A stretch of 37,526 nt of DNA, taken from the NCBI GenBank assembly GCA_965656375.1, contig CBFHKH010000001.1, positions 475,319 through 512,844 of the forward strand, given 5' to 3'. Origin of the DNA: Minisyncoccia bacterium (GTDB lineage: Bacteria > Patescibacteriota > Minisyncoccia > Phycocordibacterales > UBA9973). The position numbers and the translations under genes were made by a program. How positions within the stretch are numbered: position 1 is the first letter of the stretch; every line of letters begins with the position of its first letter. The notes beneath the pieces were generated by a model. It ran no database searches. It saw nothing but the letters and a program-made list of their open reading frames with translations, and was not told where the DNA came from. Of the stretch, positions 5,359 through 27,254 are shown one piece after another.

Positions 5359-5760
5359 TTACCAAATCCCTTCTTTAATCAAATCAGGGATTACATCTTC
5401 CTGATTATGTGGAATCATAGGATATTTTTTACTCTCAAAATCTTCCTTTGTTAACCATACAATCTCTTCTATTTCAGCATCAGGCTTTATCTCTCCTTTG
5501 ATTTCTGCAATATATAATCTTTCGATTATTCCACGATCTGAGTTATAAAAACTTATTGTTTGATATTCCTTGAAGAAACGACTTTTTATAATTTCCACTC
5601 CCATTTCTTCTTTGAGTTCCCTTTGAAGGCATTCTTCGTCTGTCTCGTTTTCCTTAATTTTTCCGCCCGGTGTCCATAATTCCTTATATCCTGTACCAAT
5701 CTGCATAAGGAGGTTGCCATCCTGAATAATTATTGCGGCAATTCTAGTATGAGTTGTCAT
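5359..5760 (-). CDS. NUDIX hydrolase
   Basis: PGGKIKENETDEECLQRELKEEMG Nudix box. Confidence 0.88.
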   Translation of the reverse strand: MTTHTRIAAIIIQDGNLLMQIGTGYKELWTPGGKIKENETDEECLQRELKEEMGVEIIKSRFFKEYQTISFYNSDRGIIERLYIAEIKGEIKPDAEIEEIVWLTKEDFESKKYPMIPHNQEDVIPDLIKEGIW

Positions 5761-6827: not shown

Positions 6828-7283
6828 TTACATATTAACTGAACTAAAAATACCCTTGATGATCTTTGTACCTGGATAGAGAACCACAGGTAAAGATCCA
6901 TTATTAGTCACTTCGAGGATAAGTTGGTTATTTGTATCTGGCTCTACGATAAACGAACTCTGGGCTACATCTATCCCCATTTGTGCGATCGTTGATCGAG
7001 TACCCACTAGACATATGTATTTGCCTTTCAAATTAATCGTTTCTTTTGTATTACATAAAACCAATTCGCCTGGATTTAATTTATACCCTTGTTCAGGAAT
7101 TTCAATCTCATCGAACTCTGGATCAATACGTGAATCTAGAAATTCTTTATTTTTCAAAGTTCTAATTTTAGAATCAAGTGTAAAAGTGTAGCTGGCTTCC
7201 TTAAGAAGATTTGGGTCAAAAGGAGTAATTTCTATTTCTCCTTTTATTACTAAATCATGTATTTGATCTTTTGAGTAAAACAT
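6828..7283 (-). CDS. dcd: dCTP deaminase / trimeric dUTPase family protein
   Basis: I.I.PF...L..ASY..TL, L.PGE..L..T.E, RSTIAQMGI, LEV.N....PV.LYPG.KI; start at ATG 7283. Confidence 0.75.
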   Translation of the reverse strand: MFYSKDQIHDLVIKGEIEITPFDPNLLKEASYTFTLDSKIRTLKNKEFLDSRIDPEFDEIEIPEQGYKLNPGELVLCNTKETINLKGKYICLVGTRSTIAQMGIDVAQSSFIVEPDTNNQLILEVTNNGSLPVVLYPGTKIIKGIFSSVNM

Positions 7284-7312
7284 AGTGGTGCTTTTAGTAT
7301 AACAAAATGATA

Positions 7313-7327
7313 GAGATAATGGGGTCA
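7313..7327 (+). repeat. Partial REP-like copy GAGATAATGGGGTCA
   Basis: 15/15 identical to 14464-14478; continues as the palindrome GGTCATGACC. Confidence 0.7.
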
Positions 7328-7364
7328 TGACCGTATTCCTACAGACCATCATAAGGCAATTAAA

Positions 7365-18143: not shown

Positions 18144-20745
18144 GTTTTTTAGGTAGTCTAAAAATCTCTGCGACTTCTTCGTAATGTTCGTTTTTCTTAT
18201 CAAAAGCATTTAATAACTCAATTTCGCTCACATCAAGCAGTTCTCCAATGTCGCTGAATGAAAGAAAGTTTCCATGCTCGCTGATAATATATCTCGAAGC
18301 TCCACGAGAAAATCCCAGATTTTGCATCTCTATAACTCGCTTGTCTGTAGTACCGTATTCGATAAATTCAGACCAATCTTGCCCGGCATTTTCTTCACCG
18401 AGTACATATTTAGAAATTAAGTAGTAGTTCAAGAAGTACTTTTCAATCTTAAATCGCAAGCCATTTTCAATATCACTCATTATCTGCTCAATGATGATAT
18501 TGATTTGTTTTTGATCACCAGTAAAACGCTCGTTCTTTGGTCTGCCATCTTCATAGAACCAAATGTCACCCTTATCTTGATGATAGTTAATAGAGAAAGT
18601 AATCAATCGACTCAAAGGCTCTGCCTTTGTCCAGTTTTTCATTAGCATAGCCCAGTATCTAAGACGGCTTTTACCATATCCCGCATCTACAAGCCCTTTC
18701 GGTATTAATGGGTCTCTTCCTCCTGATTCCTCGATGTCCCAGCCATACATCGTGTATAGGGTTTCTAGAGCATGAACAATAATCTCGATATTATCGTTAC
18801 TTATATTTAAAACAGCCTCCTGTTTCTTTGCTTGAATGTGAGCAAGAACTTTGTTTTGGTATATCGGCTTGATTGTCGAAGATGATCTAAGAATATCGCT
18901 AGGAACCTTGTTGGTATTTTTTGTCTTTTCCAAAAGCTCCAAAGCCTTGGGGTTCTTCTCAAAAAATCCTGACTTAAGCACAGAGGCTTCATTCTCTATG
19001 TGATGCAAAAGCATTATGGTCGAATAGTGGGTTAGGTTTTCTTTCTCACCCACACGAAGACTTTTTGCCATGTCTCCATTCACAAGAGCTTTTCCAATAT
19101 TTGTAAATTCTTTAGTCTTCCGTTTCTCTTTATTCACCAAGAAACTATCGACCTTGCCAAGACTCGTTTTCTTTAACAGCTCTGCGCCATCTTGCCAACG
19201 CCTATCTTCGTCTCGGACACATATTACGTTACCTGAGATTTCTTTTGTTAGTCTTCCTGCTCGACCAATTAGATTTTCAAAATCAATTTTTTCAAATGTA
19301 TGAGAACCGTGACCGTCATTAAAAACAAAGATGTTCTTTGCTGGAAGATTTATACCCTCAAGTAAAGTTGAGGTGCAAAATACATACCTGAGTGATGAGT
19401 CTTTGTCGGCAAAAAAGTCTTCGATCTTACGTCGTACAGGCTGTGGCATTTTTCCGTGATGAAACGCAACCCCTTTTCTTAAGCATTCGATCAAGTAATA
19501 ATCCTTGTGAACATAGTCCGCTATATATACGAGCAAGTCTCGAAGCTCCTGGGTATCTGGAACCTTTGGTAAGGTTGATGCAAAATCCTTTGCTCTACGC
19601 ACAGTCTCGGAAATTCCATTACAGTAAATAATATTGTTTACGCCACTACCAAGATTTTCTATAAGCTTCTGAGAGTTTAGGTTAAAATCGAAATTTTCTA
19701 TCGTATGTTTGTCTCCAAGCTCGGAAAACAACACAGCTTCCTTATCTTTAAAATCAACAAAGTACCTATTCTGGGCAACTGTCTGTTCTGTAATAGGAAG
19801 CGAACCTCGATCGTCTTTTTCAAACAGTTTTAGGAAAATATCAGGGTTTGGAATATTTGGAGATGCAAAAACTAGTTTTGTAGCGAACCTGCGCGTTGTT
19901 TCGTATATTGCATGATAATAAAGCGAACTCCGAGAATCATTTTCGGCAATAACTTTCTGTGCTTCATCAACAAAGAGGTATTTAATACCGAGGGCGTTAG
20001 AACTTACGTAACTGAGCAATCGTTCTGGTGTAAAGACGAAGATATGGTATTTATATTTCTTTTGAGCATATGATGATAGAACGGGATGTGAAGCTATATT
20101 CACATTACTATCGTCAATTTCATCTCTTAGTTCTGCAACAACCTGACTGATTAATGCCCTTGTTGGTACAAGGATTACAACCGCGCCATCAATCACCTGA
20201 TTCTGCTGTAGCAGGTGACGGATGTAGTCTTTCATTATGAAAGATTTACCAATCGATGTTGGTCCAGAAAAACTAAAGTAGTCAAAGGATTCCAGTTCCT
20301 TTCTTACTTTATGCTGAGCATCGGTAAAAATGTACTTTCCATTCGATATTTTTTGATTTTCCGACTTTACCTTTCTTTCGATGTTTCTTTCTAAAGGAAG
20401 AGCATCGACATATTCCTCATTATCACGAAGAAATTTCAACGCAGGAAAATTCCCCAATTTTGCCAAGATCGCACTCGCAAATAATTGAAAACTCTTAGAT
20501 TTGCCAAAGGCTTTCACTAAAAGAGCAATGATCTTGTACGCTTTATTTCTTGCATCCGCGTCTTTTGAATGAGAGAGCAGATCAGCAAATCTCATCAGGT
20601 CATTAAATTCCTTTTCAGATATTGATTCGTTTGTTCCAATACTAAAACAATCATGTGCTGAGATGATTTCTGCCTTACTGAAGAGACTCAAAAAATAATC
20701 GTCTTTCAGTATGTCTTCTTTGAGTCTTTCAGCAATAGTCGTCAT
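18136..20745 (-). CDS. hamB: Ski2-like SF2 helicase, Hachiman HamB-like
   Basis: GPTSIGKS, LVPTRAL, TPER, FVDEAQK, GVAFHHG, TSTLLEGINLP, NLIGRAGR; coupled to the DUF1837-like gene by an ATGA overlap. Confidence 0.82.
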   Translation of the reverse strand: MTTIAERLKEDILKDDYFLSLFSKAEIISAHDCFSIGTNESISEKEFNDLMRFADLLSHSKDADARNKAYKIIALLVKAFGKSKSFQLFASAILAKLGNFPALKFLRDNEEYVDALPLERNIERKVKSENQKISNGKYIFTDAQHKVRKELESFDYFSFSGPTSIGKSFIMKDYIRHLLQQNQVIDGAVVILVPTRALISQVVAELRDEIDDSNVNIASHPVLSSYAQKKYKYHIFVFTPERLLSYVSSNALGIKYLFVDEAQKVIAENDSRSSLYYHAIYETTRRFATKLVFASPNIPNPDIFLKLFEKDDRGSLPITEQTVAQNRYFVDFKDKEAVLFSELGDKHTIENFDFNLNSQKLIENLGSGVNNIIYCNGISETVRRAKDFASTLPKVPDTQELRDLLVYIADYVHKDYYLIECLRKGVAFHHGKMPQPVRRKIEDFFADKDSSLRYVFCTSTLLEGINLPAKNIFVFNDGHGSHTFEKIDFENLIGRAGRLTKEISGNVICVRDEDRRWQDGAELLKKTSLGKVDSFLVNKEKRKTKEFTNIGKALVNGDMAKSLRVGEKENLTHYSTIMLLHHIENEASVLKSGFFEKNPKALELLEKTKNTNKVPSDILRSSSTIKPIYQNKVLAHIQAKKQEAVLNISNDNIEIIVHALETLYTMYGWDIEESGGRDPLIPKGLVDAGYGKSRLRYWAMLMKNWTKAEPLSRLITFSINYHQDKGDIWFYEDGRPKNERFTGDQKQINIIIEQIMSDIENGLRFKIEKYFLNYYLISKYVLGEENAGQDWSEFIEYGTTDKRVIEMQNLGFSRGASRYIISEHGNFLSFSDIGELLDVSEIELLNAFDKKNEHYEEVAEIFRLPKKHE

Positions 20746-21671
20746 TGGATATGTTCGATTATCTTTTTTCTGGTCGAATCCAGACTTATGTCACCCTTTT
20801 TAATAAAAGGGACAGCGTATATATAAAAATGATACCCATCAAGGTTATGGGTTGTGATTTGCTCTTGGATATAGTCGTATCTATCCTCTACAGACTTTTT
20901 AACTTCTTCTTTGATCTTCTTTTCAAAATCCTGATCTGTCATCTGTTGGAGATCCCAGTCATTTATATCAATTTCAAAACCAACAAAAATACCAAAACAA
21001 TTTGCTTTCGTAACAGAGGTGTCACGCGCCGATGGTTTAATGATGTTCTTGAGGTATTCCACTGCATCTTCAGCAAAAGATTCTTTCATCAGATTAGAAT
21101 CCACCAAATTTATTTCTCCACCAATTCCTTCCGTTTCGACTTTTTTAATGGACTTAAAAGCATCCGCTATTGCCTTGCGGAAGCTTGAACCTTTTTCGGT
21201 TGAATCACTGATCATCTTTGATTCTCCGAAAATGAGATGAAAATTTCCGTTACCAAGATCAAGAAGATGAATACCATCAGCGCCCTTTATGTAGTCATTC
21301 CCAGAAGTCTTGAGTTCCATTTTTGATAGAATCTTCGGAGCATTCAAATGAGTTTCAAGGAAGCAGTACAAAAACAGTTCACCACCCTCGCCATCATTAA
21401 CTTCAAAATCTCTGAACGACTGTTGTACTTGTTTGATGTGCTCGTGTAATTTACCTTCCTCAATACCTTCAAATTTGGTTCGAGAAAAGACATATGTAAT
21501 GGCGGCGTTACCCAACTCGCGATTCATGCTCTCATAGTCAAAACGCCCACCGTCTATTCGGAGGACATACAGACTTAGTTTGGTCTTTACCGTTAGATTA
21601 TGGGCATCTATCTCTGGCTCATAAAATAAATCTAAGAATTTCTTACCATTTTTAATACTTTTCTCTATCAT
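20742..21671 (-). CDS. hamA: DUF1837 / HamA-like PD-(D/E)xK nuclease
   Basis: GELFLYCFLE, KMELKT, GADGIH, FGESK and terminal Y.VPF motifs. Start set at ATG 21671; the ORF track extends to 21770. Confidence 0.82.
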   Translation of the reverse strand: MIEKSIKNGKKFLDLFYEPEIDAHNLTVKTKLSLYVLRIDGGRFDYESMNRELGNAAITYVFSRTKFEGIEEGKLHEHIKQVQQSFRDFEVNDGEGGELFLYCFLETHLNAPKILSKMELKTSGNDYIKGADGIHLLDLGNGNFHLIFGESKMISDSTEKGSSFRKAIADAFKSIKKVETEGIGGEINLVDSNLMKESFAEDAVEYLKNIIKPSARDTSVTKANCFGIFVGFEIDINDWDLQQMTDQDFEKKIKEEVKKSVEDRYDYIQEQITTHNLDGYHFYIYAVPFIKKGDISLDSTRKKIIEHIQ

Positions 21672-22051
21672 AAAATCTCTTGGATATAAGTGTATCCTAC
21701 TTGCAGATTCTAGCATTTTCCTCTTGATTTTTCCAGTTTTTATTGTATGGCTTTTAACTGTTTCCACCACTCTGTGCCGGAGAAGACTGTCAAGGATTCT
21801 TTTGCATCATCAACACCAAAAGTATCGTCGCATTTCAGTCAACAAATAATTTAAACGCCATTTATATCCCTTATTACAAGGGTATTTTTATGTCTGCATA
21901 CCAAACACCGTATACACAAATTGATACGCCCCTTGCACATTCCAAAACCCCACATTCACTTTTTTAGTATCGTGACTATGTAACACAGAGCTGTCATTTT
22001 CGGAGAAATGTACGCCACTGATTACTTTATTAGCACTAATTCATACACATT

Positions 22052-23332
22052 ATGAAAAAAGAAAAACTTGAATGGAGTTCGGGGGTTCGTGAGGTTACGA
22101 AGCTAAAGCCTTGGAAAGATAATCCGAGGTCGATAACAGCATCGGCGTTTGAAAAGTTAAAAGACAGAATCAGGGAACGTGGCTTTCACAGCACGATTGT
22201 CATTGATACGGACAATACTATCCTCTCAGGAAACATGCGAAGAGAGGCACTCATTGCACTTGGCATAAAGGAGGTAAATATTCTTGTTCCGAATCGAAAA
22301 CTGACAAGCGAAGAAAGAAAACGGATCGCACTCGAAAGTAACTTGAACGATGGAGAGTGGAACATGGAGGCTTTGAAGTCATTTAATTTGGAACTACTCA
22401 CCGATGTTGGATTCGATCAGATGAAATTGGTGGAGTTCTGGGACAAGGATGCGGAAGTTGCAAAGGATTCGTTTGATCTGAAGAAAGAAATCAAGATTGC
22501 TGAAAAGACGAAGATAAAACGTGGCGATATGTATCAGCTCGGTTGTCACAAATTAATCTGTGCCGATGCGACAGATCCGAATACTGTCATCAAATTGATG
22601 GATGGTGTAAAGGTAGATCTCGTCAATCAGGATCCCCCCTACAATATCGGGCTGTCATATGACAAAGGGGTGGGTGGAAAAAAGAGCAGTAAAAAGTATG
22701 GTGGTCAAACCGATGACAACCTGAGCGACGAGGGCTACAAGGATTTCATCAGGAAGATGATGAAGAATGCGTTGTCCGTCAGCAAGAAAGATTGCCATTT
22801 TGCCTACTGGGGAGATGAACGCTTTGTCTGGGTTTTTCAGACTCTCTACAAAGAACTAGGTATCGCTTCCAAGAGACTCCTCATATGGGTAAAAAACAAT
22901 GCATCGCCCACGCCTCAGACCGCATTCAACAAAGCAACGGAATACATCATTTATGGTACGACTGGATCGCCGTACCTCTCTCCCAATGTTCACAATGCCA
23001 ATGAAGTAATAAACTTCGACACCACAACAGGAAATGATTTGCTTGATGAAGTGAGCAATATCATTCTTCAGAAAAGACTTCCCAGCAACCAATATCATCA
23101 CCCCACCCAAAAAGATCCTCAGGTACACTCGAAGATTCTCAAGCGTTGCACCAAGATTGGCGATGCGGTGCTTGATCTGACCGCTGGCTCTGGAAGCATC
23201 ATGTCTGCGTGCGAACAGCTCGGCAGAGTTGCCTATATGTCTGACTACGAGCCTGTGTTCTGTCAGGTGATCTTGAACAGGTACAAGAAGATGACAGGAC
23301 TTAATCCAGTAAAGATATATGAAGAAAAATAA
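22052..23332 (+). CDS. ParB-like N-terminal domain fused to an N6/N4 DNA methyltransferase (phage-type)
   Basis: NPR...IVID...ILSGNMR (ParB); G.HKLICADA, DPPYN, HPTQK, VLDLTAGSGS (beta-class motif order). Confidence 0.9.
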   Translation: MKKEKLEWSSGVREVTKLKPWKDNPRSITASAFEKLKDRIRERGFHSTIVIDTDNTILSGNMRREALIALGIKEVNILVPNRKLTSEERKRIALESNLNDGEWNMEALKSFNLELLTDVGFDQMKLVEFWDKDAEVAKDSFDLKKEIKIAEKTKIKRGDMYQLGCHKLICADATDPNTVIKLMDGVKVDLVNQDPPYNIGLSYDKGVGGKKSSKKYGGQTDDNLSDEGYKDFIRKMMKNALSVSKKDCHFAYWGDERFVWVFQTLYKELGIASKRLLIWVKNNASPTPQTAFNKATEYIIYGTTGSPYLSPNVHNANEVINFDTTTGNDLLDEVSNIILQKRLPSNQYHHPTQKDPQVHSKILKRCTKIGDAVLDLTAGSGSIMSACEQLGRVAYMSDYEPVFCQVILNRYKKMTGLNPVKIYEEK

Positions 23333-23714
23333 GATCCAGGATAAGTTCCTGGAAGAATTGAGGACTATTCCCATAGTGCAGGTCGGTTGCGAGAAATCAG
23401 GGATTTCCAGAAACAGCGTGTATCGATGGAAAAAGGAAGACAAGACTTTTTCCAATAAGATGGATCAAGCACTCGCTGACGGCGTGGCTTTTGTAAGTGA
23501 CATGAGTGAGAGTCAACTGCTTACGCTCATCAAGGAGAAGAATTTTCCTGCTCTGAGCTTTTGGCTACGGCACAGGAATGATAACTACAAAAGCAAAGTC
23601 GAAGTGTCTGGCACTATCTCTACCAAAGATGAACCTCTAACCAAAGAGCAGAAGAAGCTCGTACGACAGGCATTGAAATTGTCCTCCCTAAAGCATTATG
23701 AAAAAGAAAAGTGA
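23319..23714 (+). CDS. HTH protein, putative terminase small subunit
   Basis: CEKSGISRNSVYRWKKED HTH and A..FWL motif; overlaps both neighbours and directly precedes TerL. Confidence 0.72.
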   Translation: MKKNKIQDKFLEELRTIPIVQVGCEKSGISRNSVYRWKKEDKTFSNKMDQALADGVAFVSDMSESQLLTLIKEKNFPALSFWLRHRNDNYKSKVEVSGTISTKDEPLTKEQKKLVRQALKLSSLKHYEKEK

Positions 23715-25146
23715 AAGCGATGAAATCTTCGAGCGTGTCCTGAAAGATCAGCGTTTTCGGCAAGAAGTTGTCAGGAAGAGTCTTGAGTTTTTCTTCCCGA
23801 TATATCTGCACGAATACATCAAGTACGAAACCGCACCGTTCCAAAGAGAGATATTTCGTATTCTTCAAAACGAGAAGAACAAGCTTGCCGTCATAACGGC
23901 GTTTCGAGGATCAGCCAAATCAACCATCATTACGACCGCATATGTCCTGTGGTCTATCTTGGGCGTGCAACAAAAGAAGTTCATTATGATCTGTTCGCAA
24001 ACTGAAACGAAAGCGAGACAGCATTTGAATAACATCAAGGATCAGCTTTTACATAACGAACTTTTGAAAAAAGACCTCGGACCATTCGAGGAAGAAAAGA
24101 ACAATCTTGGAAACGCCACAGCTCTCATCATCAAGCGAATGAATGTGAAGATCATGATCTGTTCTATCGAGCAGAGTATCCGTGGTATGCGTCACAACGA
24201 GCATCGTCCCGACCTTATTATTCTCGACGACATCGAAGATCTTAACTCAGTCAAAACAAAGGAGGGACGAAACAAAACTTTTGACTGGCTGACTGGTGAC
24301 ATCATTCCCGCAGGTACGAGGAAGACTCGGATTATCGCAATTGGTAACCTGCTCCACGAGGACTGCGTACTCAAACGATTGGAAAAGAAAATTGAAAACG
24401 GCGAGATGAAAATAATGAACGGCATCTATCGTGAGTATCCGATCATTGATGGCAAAGGCAATCCTTTGTGGGCTGGCAAATATCCTACACCCGAATCTAT
24501 TGAGGAAGAGCGAGAGAAAACCATGAACGATACCGCATGGCACAGAGAGTACTTACTTAAGATCATTTCAAGCGATGAACAGATCGTACACCCCGAATGG
24601 ATCAAACTCTATGACAAGATTCCTCCCGACGGTTTTAGAGGTATTTATATCGGCGTTGACCTAGCTATCGGAGAGAAAGAAACGAATGACTGCACATCCA
24701 TGGTTATTGGGTACGTTTTTGGTATTGGAAAGAAAATGCATATATACATTCGTCCTAAACCGTTCAATGCACGAGTTCCTTTCCCAGAACAAGCTGAATA
24801 TCTCGCAGGTCTTATCGCACGAGAAAAGATCATGCACCGCAGAGTCAAAGTATATGTTGAAGATGTGGGCTACCAACGAGCATTGGTTCAATATTTTGAT
24901 AGCAATAAATACGATATCGAGGCTGTGCCAGTCGGCAGAATGAGCAAGTCATTGCGACTGCAATTGACCACACCACTCATTAAAGAAGGCAGAGTTCTTT
25001 TTCCAGAGGAAGGATGTGAGGAACTGCTTGATCAGATCCTAGGATTTGGAAAAGAAAAACATGACGATCTTGTCGATGCTTTTTCCTTATTGGTTATGAA
25101 AGTGATTGATAACAATCCGAACAATGCAGGAATACTGTTTGGTTAA
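23698..25146 (+). CDS. terL: Phage terminase large subunit
   Basis: Walker A FRGSAKST, Walker B LIILDDIE, RNase H-like IGVDLA, D.TS, YVED and HDDLVDA. Confidence 0.9.
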   Translation: MKKKSESDEIFERVLKDQRFRQEVVRKSLEFFFPIYLHEYIKYETAPFQREIFRILQNEKNKLAVITAFRGSAKSTIITTAYVLWSILGVQQKKFIMICSQTETKARQHLNNIKDQLLHNELLKKDLGPFEEEKNNLGNATALIIKRMNVKIMICSIEQSIRGMRHNEHRPDLIILDDIEDLNSVKTKEGRNKTFDWLTGDIIPAGTRKTRIIAIGNLLHEDCVLKRLEKKIENGEMKIMNGIYREYPIIDGKGNPLWAGKYPTPESIEEEREKTMNDTAWHREYLLKIISSDEQIVHPEWIKLYDKIPPDGFRGIYIGVDLAIGEKETNDCTSMVIGYVFGIGKKMHIYIRPKPFNARVPFPEQAEYLAGLIAREKIMHRRVKVYVEDVGYQRALVQYFDSNKYDIEAVPVGRMSKSLRLQLTTPLIKEGRVLFPEEGCEELLDQILGFGKEKHDDLVDAFSLLVMKVIDNNPNNAGILFG

Positions 25147-25148
25147 CT

Positions 25149-25574
25149 TTACTTGATCTTTTCTCCGTCGAAAATGAACTCTACAACTTTCCAGTTCGCA
25201 TCTGTCTCGACTGACTCCTGAGTATCTTGCCCGCCGATATATTCGAGCTTCATAGACCAGTAGGTACGGATCATCGCCCCGAACCCATTTTGACTGTCGA
25301 TATACGACGATACTTCAAACAGGTTCGGATTTGTCGGATCGACTTTTGTTGTTGGCGGATTATATTTCGCTGTTGATGGCGACTTCAGTGGAACTTTATC
25401 AATGTACGACTTTGCAAGAATTCGTGCGCTCTGATATTTCACTTCGCTGATCTGCTGAGCAGGTGTAGGAGCAGGGCTACTATTTATATCTGCGACCATT
25501 CCGACAACAAACAGAACACCTAAAATAAGAACAAGCTTCTTACCTGTAGACCAGGTAGATATTTTTAAATTCAT
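25149..25574 (-). CDS. Membrane-anchored hypothetical protein
   Basis: N-terminal TM helix, Pro-rich linker, LKSPSTAK and IDSQNGFGAMIR motifs. Confidence 0.75.
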   Translation of the reverse strand: MNLKISTWSTGKKLVLILGVLFVVGMVADINSSPAPTPAQQISEVKYQSARILAKSYIDKVPLKSPSTAKYNPPTTKVDPTNPNLFEVSSYIDSQNGFGAMIRTYWSMKLEYIGGQDTQESVETDANWKVVEFIFDGEKIK

Positions 25575-25616
25575 AAAACTTTAGCGGTTTTTTATGACTA
25601 ATAATGTTTGAGGAGA

Positions 25617-25718
25617 TGCAAAAATCTCCCCGCCAGTTGCGATCCGATCTTTCGACCGAACCCATACCCGTTTCCAGATATGACCGCTAAAGTGACTCCT
25701 GACGAGGAGGTTTTTACA
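25617..25718 (-). ncRNA. Structured ncRNA resembling c4/CI antisense RNAs
   Basis: A 20-bp closing stem (one mismatch, three G-U) encloses two GAAA-capped hairpins and an unpaired segment complementary to sites upstream and downstream. Confidence 0.65.
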
Positions 25719-25934
25719 CTTTAGCGGGTTTTGCGCCATACCTTTGGAACAAGTTCTAAAGGGTTAGGCGACTATATTCAACTGTAAATGAATAATAACA
25801 TTTTCGACCTTATTATTCTAGATTGATTCTATCGCTGATACATGGTTTTGCTAAGACTTAGGTCGCGAGTATGCGACGTATTTCTAGTTCTGCATAGTCT
25901 ATGCACCATCCACCAGTCTGTCATCAATATAGAT

Positions 25935-27254
25935 ATGGAAACCCAGTACATAAGTAACCTTGGTGTTAAAACGGAGATAGTTCAAGCAAAAGTTCGCTAT
26001 GTTCTATACGCCAGAAAATCGACTGAATCAGACGAGAAGCAAGCTTTGTCTATTGAGTCGCAAGTAAAGGAAATGTTAACTATCGCAGATCGTGATGGAC
26101 TCACTGTGGTAGATATCAGGCGAGAATCACATAGCGCTAAAGAATCAGGACAGCGACCTGTATTTAAAGAATTGCTTGAAGATGTTCGTAGAGGCAGATA
26201 TACGGGAATATTAACATGGGCACCTGATCGTCTTTCTCGAAACGCAGGAGATCTTGGGTCTGTGGTTGATCTCATGGACGAGAATAAATTGATAGAGATT
26301 AGAACATACGGACAACATTTCAAGAACTCACCAAATGAAAAGTTTCTCTTAATGATCTTGTGTTCTCAAGCAAAGCTAGAAAACGACAACAAGAGCATTA
26401 ATGTAAAACGAGGATTAAGAACGAGATGCGAAATGGGGCTACGACCAGGACCTGCGGTTGTCGGATATCTCAACGAAAAGCGAATGGATAAAAAGTGTGA
26501 AGTGATTATAGATCCTGAACGAGCACCGATAGTAAAACAGATTTTTGAAAAGGTAGCGTATGAGCAATGGTCAGGCAGAAAGATTTTTCATTGGCTGAAG
26601 TTTGATCTGAACTTCAAGACCAGAAGTGGCAACAAAGGACTCACTCTCAGCAATATCTACCTCATACTGCAAAACCCCATCTACTATGGGGTTTTTGAAT
26701 ACCCAAAGAAAAGCGGAAATTTCTATACAGGAAAGCATGAGCCAATAATTTCTAAGGAACTCTTTGATCAAGTCCAAGGACAGATAAAAAGTCAGGTACT
26801 ACGAGTACAGGAACCAAAAGAATTTGCGTTCACCAAGATGATGACCTGTGGTCTATGCGATTCTGGTATCTGTGCAGATGAGAAGTTTAAGAAACTCAAA
26901 GACGGATCAGTGAACAGGCATGTTTACTATAGCTGTACCAAATCAAAGGATAAGTATTGCAAATGCGGATATATAAACGAAACCGAGTTGATAGAACAGT
27001 TCGAGAAACTTCTTGAATCAATCAATATCAGCGAGATCGGAATGAAAGAAAAGATCAAATATGAGGTTGAACGGATCAAGAAATTCAATCAGTCTGTTTT
27101 GAATATAAAACAGCAGATACAGATCAAGGATGTAGACATTAGAGACTACGCCAAATTTATCTTGAAAGACGGTTCGATTGAGGAGAAGCGAGAATTACTT
27201 ACTTGTTTTAAAAGCAAGATTATACTAAAAGATAAAATTATTTCACTAGATTAG
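25935..27254 (+). CDS. Large serine recombinase (resolvase, recombinase and zinc-ribbon domains)
   Basis: YARKSTE, S.ESQ, RP.F..L, DRLSRN, L.NP.Y.G, GKHEPIISKELF, CGLC...YYSC...C; start at ATG 25935. Confidence 0.93.
   Translation: METQYISNLGVKTEIVQAKVRYVLYARKSTESDEKQALSIESQVKEMLTIADRDGLTVVDIRRESHSAKESGQRPVFKELLEDVRRGRYTGILTWAPDRLSRNAGDLGSVVDLMDENKLIEIRTYGQHFKNSPNEKFLLMILCSQAKLENDNKSINVKRGLRTRCEMGLRPGPAVVGYLNEKRMDKKCEVIIDPERAPIVKQIFEKVAYEQWSGRKIFHWLKFDLNFKTRSGNKGLTLSNIYLILQNPIYYGVFEYPKKSGNFYTGKHEPIISKELFDQVQGQIKSQVLRVQEPKEFAFTKMMTCGLCDSGICADEKFKKLKDGSVNRHVYYSCTKSKDKYCKCGYINETELIEQFEKLLESINISEIGMKEKIKYEVERIKKFNQSVLNIKQQIQIKDVDIRDYAKFILKDGSIEEKRELLTCFKSKIILKDKIISLD

Follow-up and report, generated by a model that had tools for sequence, protein, structure and literature searches.

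A LOOT RNA as a candidate two-fold leader switch of a cargo gene in a Patescibacteria mobile element

A structured RNA on the minus strand of the window, the 37,526-nucleotide stretch of Minisyncoccia bacterium DNA that we analysed, belongs to the LOOT family. A long-range helix (b:c) enclosing two of its hairpins covaries across homologues, as do the pairings of a short inner segment (the seed, a′) with its hairpin partner (a) and with a third copy (a2) located 3 nt before the start codon of the following gene. From these observations we arrive at a reading that we hold to be probable, if only somewhat so, in which the RNA would act as the 5′ leader, bistable in its folding, of a cargo gene that differs between loci, within an element carrying a serine integrase and a terminase.

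The RNA and its family

The locus is laid out as follows.

25842–27254, plus strand: large serine recombinase gene, divergent from the RNA (Resolvase, Recombinase and Zn_ribbon_recom; phrog_95 integrase)
25775–25786, minus strand: conserved promoter-like box immediately preceding the RNA, TACAGTTGAATA here and TACAAyTnAATA in relatives (30-locus alignment)
25734–25770, minus strand: P1 hairpin with internal loop CCUAAC/UAUGG (Rfam LOOT alignment)
25717–25727, minus strand: a, the 5′ arm of P2, CCGCUAAAGUG, which pairs with 25694–25684 in the Rfam consensus and in the MFE fold
25699–25718, minus strand: b, comprising the A-run, apical 5′ strand and loop of P2, and forming the 5′ strand of helix b:c (covariation, 98 sequences)
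25683–25694, minus strand: a′, the 3′ arm of P2 or 'seed', CACUUUAGCGGU, complementary to a and a2
25663–25682, minus strand: P3 hairpin with conserved GAAA loop, CATATCTG-GAAA-CGGGTATG (Rfam alignment)
25641–25662, minus strand: P4 hairpin with a GAAA loop in the window copy, GGTTCGGTC-GAAA-GATCGGATC; 3′ end of the Rfam model (Rfam alignment)
25617–25636, minus strand: c, made up of c1 CUGGCGGGGAG and c2 AUUUUUGCA, the 3′ partner of b in the long-range helix, not covered by the Rfam model (covariation)
25610–25616, minus strand: d, UCUCCUC, which pairs with GGGGAGA of c in the local hairpin of the alternative fold (MFE fold)
25578–25588, minus strand: a2, the third copy, ACCGCUAAAGU, 3 nt 5′ of the start codon (sequence)
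25149–25574, minus strand: ORF of 141 aa whose product has a hydrophobic segment near its N terminus; cargo gene behind the RNA, with its ATG at 25574 (ORF list)

An Rfam scan matched LOOT RNA (RF03000) at 25770–25641 on the minus strand with 85.2 bits against a gathering score of 46.4. The match spans model positions 1–121 of 121, has an E-value of 6.9e-15 in the window, and is the sole non-tRNA Rfam match across the whole window. The first-pass annotation had proposed a c4/CI-like antisense RNA switch, with the c4, c4-2 and c4-a1b1 models as a check; a permissive cmscan of 25300–26100 at E ≤ 10 returned eight matches with no c4-type family among them and LOOT alone above its cut-off, and c4 membership was therefore dropped. 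That annotation's broader claim of a structured RNA on the minus strand was upheld by the LOOT match, by the fold of the 201-nt RNA and by covariation in homologues, and a re-reading of the minus strand from 25950 to 25400 located every pairing that it had listed. The 201-nt RNA has an MFE of −68.7 kcal/mol (z = −4.87, with none of 200 shuffles as stable), and its single-sequence MFE structure equals the Rfam LOOT fold plus a local hairpin, GGGGAGA/UCUCCUC, just 3′ of P4.

The window copy contains the P1 internal loop CCUAA...AUGG (GCCUAACCC...GGUAUGGC at 25769–25735), as well as the long P2 and the two short GAAA-loop hairpins P3 and P4 that LOOT requires; its a:a′ helix measures 11 bp, and the apex pairs of P2 are scored as non-canonical in the Rfam alignment. 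What had been described as a further hairpin at 25770–25734 thus turns out to be P1 of LOOT, and the two GAAA hairpins whose G-U pairs were said to fix the strand are P3 and P4, where these pairs would become C/A mismatches on the opposite strand. Across 30 sequences, 99.6% of P3 cells are paired, and the CUAA and A.G of the P1 loop are invariant in 98 homologues. The loop CCUAAC...UAUGG is one letter off the 11-nt GAAA-tetraloop receptor, for which the available part of a recent report gives the sequence CCUAAG_UAUGG (10.1101/2024.03.11.584472), and the GAAA loop of P3 would accordingly be a candidate to dock into this receptor-like loop of P1. A distant LOOT copy (L101, G161:C3) has the canonical receptor letters CCUAAG...UAUGG in P1.

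On every feature tested, the window RNA is a member of LOOT. It shares with the family the P1 hairpin with its CCUAA/AUGG loop, the long P2, the two 3′ hairpins and the occurrence in small Patescibacteria genomes, the core being identical. The 121-nt model differs from the window locus in that it is without strand c, its partner d and the start-proximal a2, all three of which are present here. The motif stems from the survey of Weinberg et al. 2017 (PMC5737381) and is pictured in the Rfam 14 paper (PMC7779021). In the available main text of the survey, 'LOOT' occurs solely as an author name and the motif description sits in the supplements, which may already describe some of these features; the accessible portions of the literature searched, in which the motif is only named (the Rfam 14 and Rfam 15 papers and Rivas 2020), give no function for it. 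LOOT is typed as an sRNA in Rfam, and the data presented here point to a leader rather than an sRNA.

A long-range helix and a recurring seed

Helix b:c joins TGTAAAAACCTCCTCGTCAG (25718–25699) to CTGGCGGGGAGATTTTTGCA (25636–25617) on the minus strand through 19 of 20 possible pairs, three of them G-U, with one C/A mismatch. The first-pass annotation had drawn this 20-bp helix around the two GAAA hairpins, and the drawing was borne out by covariation in 98 homologues and by an RNAalifold consensus. In a MAFFT alignment of 30 loci, 14 of the 20 pairs have changed on both sides and 90.1% of cells are paired, while controls in which the partner was slid by 1–3 columns gave 36.9–45.2% for the whole structure, and none of 500 shuffles reached the observed values. 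In 98 loci from across the phylum, all 20 pairs have changed on both sides and 87.8% of cells are paired, level with the accepted helix P3 in the same loci (88.2%). The part of b:c formed by the A-run and the U-run covaries as well, for example as AUACUGAAC with GCUUAGUGU in L019. When applied unguided to 21 full-length leaders, RNAalifold arrived at the structure originally drawn, in which b:c closes off a junction that contains P3 and P4. Duplexes of b2 with c1 averaged −15.0 kcal/mol for cognate strands vs −7.4 kcal/mol for non-cognate ones, and in 56 loci the cognate duplex ranked within the top five of the 98. As judged from this comparison of homologues, helix b:c is real, though it lies outside the 121-nt Rfam model. 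Family-wide support for the local hairpin c:d is modest, with 56.7% of cells paired in fixed columns and duplex energies of −9.0 (cognate) vs −6.7 kcal/mol (non-cognate).

The seed, CACTTTAGCGGT at 25694–25683, has 11-nt perfect complements at 25727–25717 and at 25588–25578, the second lying 3 nt 5′ of the ATG (25574) of the 141-aa ORF. Both had been described as target sites flanking the seed; both are present, though the upstream one is not an independent site, being the 5′ arm of P2 that pairs with the seed in cis. The complement before the downstream start codon stands as described and changes together with the seed across loci, so that the co-changes proposed as a check on the first-pass annotation were seen for a′:a2 as they were for b:c. 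The 10-mer CCGCTAAAGT occurs three times in the 870,982-base genome, each time in the LOOT locus, and a search of the window allowing one mismatch returned the same three sites. For the window locus, the idea that the seed guides recognition of an attachment site of the element or of another genomic target was dropped, as the 10-mer is confined to these three local sites.

Searching each of the 98 loci for an exact complement of at least 9 nt to its own a′, between +22 and +120, we found a2 in 30 loci, compared with 35 of 9258 non-cognate combinations of a′ and downstream region (similar seeds excluded). For 28 of these copies, the distance between the end of a2 and an ATG is −1 to +5 nt; in the two exceptions the copy ends 23 nt before the ATG (L078) or overlaps it (L088). 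Eighteen distinct seed sequences, counted by eye, occur among these loci. The a:a′ helices are contiguous over 10–12 bp with 336 Watson-Crick vs 2 G-U pairs, and the a′:a2 helices over 9–14 bp with 325 vs 2. This near-absence of G-U pairs contrasts with the G-U-rich b:c and P3 and suggests that the P2 stem is replaced in blocks. "28 cross-covariations" are noted for LOOT in the available part of PMC7657543, and block-wise stem exchange may account for them. Near-identical LOOT copies (L039, L042, L044 and others) differ at no fewer than four positions per P2 arm while their pairing stays perfectly Watson-Crick, and the stems of copies inside one genome (G049, G015, G003) are all different.

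The remaining 68 of the 98 loci have no a2 by the same search (exact complement of at least 9 nt, +22 to +120), which means that masking of the start by a′ cannot be a universal function of the family. A crude duplex scan of low power, which recovered a′ in 15 of 28 loci with a2, detected no start-region pairing beyond shuffles in 57 of 64 a2-less loci with a called start. In three genomes (G015, G049 and G007, using the stems of L042 and L013/L016), no third seed copy was found near the locus, where the hairpin arms were the only matches; the G049 stem 10-mer had two distant extra matches, in line with a reversed-pattern control. Several a2-less loci (L013, L016, L030, L035, L036, L039, L042 and L044) often have a AAACGCAAAA-like box at +45 to +60, shortly 5′ of the start codon. 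By eye, this box is complementary to the UUUUUGCGU loop (c2) of the c:d hairpin, the pairing reaching z < −2 in two loci only; in L011, L046 and L053 the box and the c2 loop have both changed, to GUUUG/CAAAC. Such a box might represent another kind of expression platform, one that works in the reverse sense.

Genomic setting and transcription signals

The source genome (0.87 Mb, 97.9% complete) has one LOOT. Above the cut-off, LOOT was found in 45 of 101 genomes in a sample of relatives and in 30 of 151 genomes evenly sampled from the phylum (the source genome included in both), in 33 of 60 other genomes of the same genus, with up to four copies per genome, and in none of 14 control genomes. 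An ATG-initiated ORF starts 30–73 nt past the 3′ end of the Rfam model in 54 of 58 order-level loci and at +126 to +265 in the other four.

We compared 128 ORFs around 30 LOOT loci with Pfam. Seven loci (L001, L005, L008, L021, L028, L029 and L030) have a gene for a large serine recombinase immediately upstream in divergent orientation, and resolvase-domain ORFs lie within 1.5 kb in three more (L003, L004, L027), bringing serine recombinases to 10 of 30; L020 has a tyrosine integrase. Also frequent around these loci are convergent genes of the terminase or small-terminase-like type, and DNA methylases. The genes directly behind LOOT are mutually unrelated and mostly without a Pfam family, the rest including SNase, Trypsin_2, DUF805, bPH, DUF5655, FemAB and TPR.

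In the window, the 141-aa product is a small membrane-anchored protein that matches phrog_13160 (function unknown, E 3.7e-16) and no Pfam family; its ORF is followed by a convergent terminase gene. According to PHROGs, the element at 20742–27254 encodes a serine integrase, TerL, a TerS-like protein, a ParB-methylase and a helicase-like 869-aa protein, and no capsid or portal was detected in the window. The integrase gene ends 4 nt from chromosomal copper-handling genes (27259 onward). Elsewhere in the window, two NUDIX hydrolase genes (phrog_1198; 540–1028 and 5359–5760), a dCTP deaminase-like gene (6828–7352) and a cytosine/adenine methylase lie within 8 kb. A loose pattern search of IMG/VR viral contigs returned at least 120 stretches, and four among the matches listed (L126, L146, L147 and L214) are LOOT by nhmmer; the three copies with listed lengths are on contigs of 7.2–7.8 kb that could each be a complete small element.

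A Shine-Dalgarno-like tetramer at −20 to −4 precedes one of the 33 larger window ORFs, and many of the 33 have a TATAAT-like box 8–15 nt 5′ of the ATG, a pattern that suggests leaderless or very-short-leader mRNAs in this Minisyncoccia bacterium host. A structured leader of about 230 nt is unusual in this genome, and, since Shine-Dalgarno use is scarce, initiation should depend on an open start region. Directly next to P1, the promoter-like box TACAGTTGAATA has (near-)invariant columns A11, A13, A14, T16, A18, A19, T20 and A21 in the 30-locus alignment; we infer that this box is a −10 element, at which transcription would start. An automated promoter scan gave weak 9-of-12 matches only, further upstream. 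We also considered a2 itself as the −10 box of a leaderless mRNA and rejected this, as the spacing is too short and most seeds are unlike a −10 hexamer. The terminator scan found none on the LOOT strand, including after a2. On the plus strand it flagged 25696–25709, where the P2 apex is followed by GTTTTTAC, antisense to LOOT; this hairpin may stop transcripts entering from the terminase side. In three metatranscriptome runs from different studies (X15, X16, X20), contigs match relatives of the LOOT part at 80–95%, where DNA carry-over is possible and transcript ends, strand and level cannot be read from the contigs.

The proposed switch and its alternatives

In the reading that we favour, the 141-aa cargo gene, part of a serine-recombinase/terminase element integrated into a Patescibacteria (CPR) genome, would have LOOT and about 65 further nucleotides as its 5′ leader, and this leader would adopt either of two folds. 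Fold A, the Rfam fold, would consist of P1, the long P2 (a:a′ and a small apex), P3, P4 and the local hairpin c:d, leaving a2 single-stranded. In fold B, which corresponds to the first-pass drawing, c would invade the P2 apex and the A-run to form the 20-bp b:c around P3 and P4, releasing a′ into the junction, where it would be free to pair with a2. The a′:a2 helix would then cover the start region from −14 to −4 and block initiation, and in this way a′:a2 pairing probably lowers translation. The balance could be shifted by the kinetics of co-transcriptional folding, by a protein or ligand binding to the tetraloop-receptor core, or by temperature.

The two folds are expected to be mutually exclusive. 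In the window copy, only 4 nt separate the end of b from a′, too few to span a 20-bp helix, for which reason P2 and b:c are taken as alternatives; this is a geometric argument rather than a computed result, and loci with a 9-nt linker might form a strained pseudoknot. The non-pseudoknotted MFE of the window copy is fold A, not fold B, and its a:a′ and a′:a2 helices are balanced at 11 bp each. With forced constraints, the stability advantage of fold A over b:c alone came to −1.2 to +14.5 kcal/mol across the 19 loci with aligned b:c columns, a range that excludes the misaligned L051 and L056, and the a′:a2 duplex is worth a rough −10.4 to −21.0 kcal/mol before loop penalties. Because this energy is comparable to the advantage of fold A, the two states would be of the same order, as far as such rough numbers go.

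Mutually exclusive partners of a single strand are familiar from three-segment attenuators, from riboswitch expression platforms and from the alternative structures of the lambda cIII mRNA. Here, c would choose between b and d, and a′ between a and a2. The leader differs from attenuators and riboswitches in having no known ligand, leader peptide or tRNA input, and in coupling two toggles within a core that a tetraloop-receptor contact would stabilise. The IsrK RNA of the Gifsy-1 prophage is similar in being a prophage transcript with two structures, one of them translationally inactive, between which the balance is shifted by a short RNA segment whose pairing exposes or occludes a start region, according to the accessible part of PMC4825925; its sequence is unrelated, and the IsrK sRNA isoform activates in trans, whereas the window RNA is proposed to mask in cis.

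The conserved layout of a2 and b:c also resembles P4 CI and P1 c4, as the first-pass annotation had pointed out. In P1, the c4 target overlaps the ribosome-binding site of icd, upstream of the antirepressor (icd-ant), and in the P4 CI system pairing brings about premature transcription termination ahead of replication genes. The c4 RNA of P1, 77 nt long according to the title of Citron and Schuster 1992 (cited in PMC8546580), represses Ant synthesis in trans (PMC8546580, available part), and P4 CI is a processed RNA from the leader of the genes it controls, with a segment complementary to sites on both sides (seqA/seqC; PMC4825925, available part). The likeness to P4 CI lies in a seed complementary to one upstream site (25727–25717) and one downstream site (25588–25578), the upstream one here being its hairpin partner, and the likeness to P1 c4 in the proposed repression of the downstream gene. 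The layout claim holds as regards sites on both sides of the seed within the transcript; homology to c4 is seen in neither sequence nor structure. The target gene is of another kind: in P4 CI and P1 c4 the target is an antirepressor or a replication operon, whereas a2, although it does abut a start codon, precedes the small membrane protein of phrog_13160.

It is possible, though in our view unlikely, that LOOT acts in trans as these phage RNAs do. Helix b:c with the U-run (AUUUUUG) would then serve as an atypical intrinsic terminator whose loop contains P3 and P4, or a nuclease would trim the transcript, giving a discrete LOOT RNA of about 150–165 nt; its exposed a′ would pair with the a2 of read-through transcripts, whether these come from the same element or from an incoming one of its type, the variable seed providing element-specific repression or immunity. 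A conserved U-run does lie directly 3′ of the GC-rich b2:c1 (T172–T176 and G177 near-invariant in the 30-locus alignment), the layout is that of the processed P4 CI RNA, and the sRNA type in Rfam, the 18 seed variants and the different stems of same-genome copies in G049, G015 and G003 would all suit such an RNA. The same U-run, however, pairs with the A-run with compensatory changes, a branched 'loop' of 75 nt would be unusual for a terminator, and the terminator scan was negative on this strand. The lack of a c4-family match, of a seed copy elsewhere in the source genome and of a third copy near a2-less loci in the three genomes tested also argues against action in trans.

An improbable reading, in our estimate, takes LOOT as a constitutive structured leader or as a sensor of a ligand or protein, in which the GAAA tetraloop-receptor contact would keep P1, P3 and P4 together. 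Helix b:c would then belong to a single native fold with a pseudoknot, and a2 would be a minor addition found in some lineages. In favour of this, conservation is highest in the receptor-like CCUAA/AUGG loop and the GAAA loop, and b:c is universal while a2 occurs in 30 of 98 loci only. Against this, a2 lies no more than 5 nt from an ATG in 28 of its 30 loci, and such precise placement, together with its covariation, would not be expected of an element without consequence; moreover, the genes behind LOOT are mutually unrelated, unlike the regulon of a metabolite riboswitch; a metabolite riboswitch in the sense of an aptamer before functionally related genes was rejected, the genes behind the 30 loci being unrelated.

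Bolder, and decidedly doubtful, is the idea that LOOT is an addressable RNA regulator of small capsid-less CPR elements. The hypervariable, perfectly paired 10–12-nt stem, of which at least 18 variants were seen, would be a specificity code, and same-code cargo or incoming copies would be silenced in trans after termination or processing at b:c and the U-run. If true, this would be a phylum-wide RNA-only immunity or incompatibility system with a logic like that of P4 CI and P1 c4 and of unrelated descent.

We consider it very unlikely that the three copies, two direct and one inverted, are DNA sites for the element's repressor or recombinase with incidental RNA pairing, a reading favoured by their near-perfect Watson-Crick arms with hardly any G-U, by a/a2 identity that runs into the flanks (17 nt in L008, 16 nt in L015) and by the adjoining recombinase gene, and opposed by the many G-U pairs and strand-specific covariation of the other helices of the RNA in which the repeats sit, by the tie of a2 to the start codon rather than to the promoter, and by the absence of the seed from the element ends and the rest of the genome. 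As the element is integrated, an intact attP is not expected at the locus; and as a, a′ and a2 are nearly free of G-U, strand asymmetry gives no argument against a DNA-level role of these three elements themselves.

LOOT has been an orphan motif since 2017, and the window locus and its relatives provide a concrete candidate mechanism for it, built on a conserved helix missing from the database model and on a self-complementary 'address' that recurs at the start codon. If the two-fold leader is true, a corrected, longer LOOT model for database searches would follow, and LOOT, so far listed as an sRNA without an assigned function, would become a switch in the leaders of cargo genes that mobile elements carry in ultra-small bacteria, organisms in which gene regulation is almost unexplored and ordinary ribosome-binding sites are rare.
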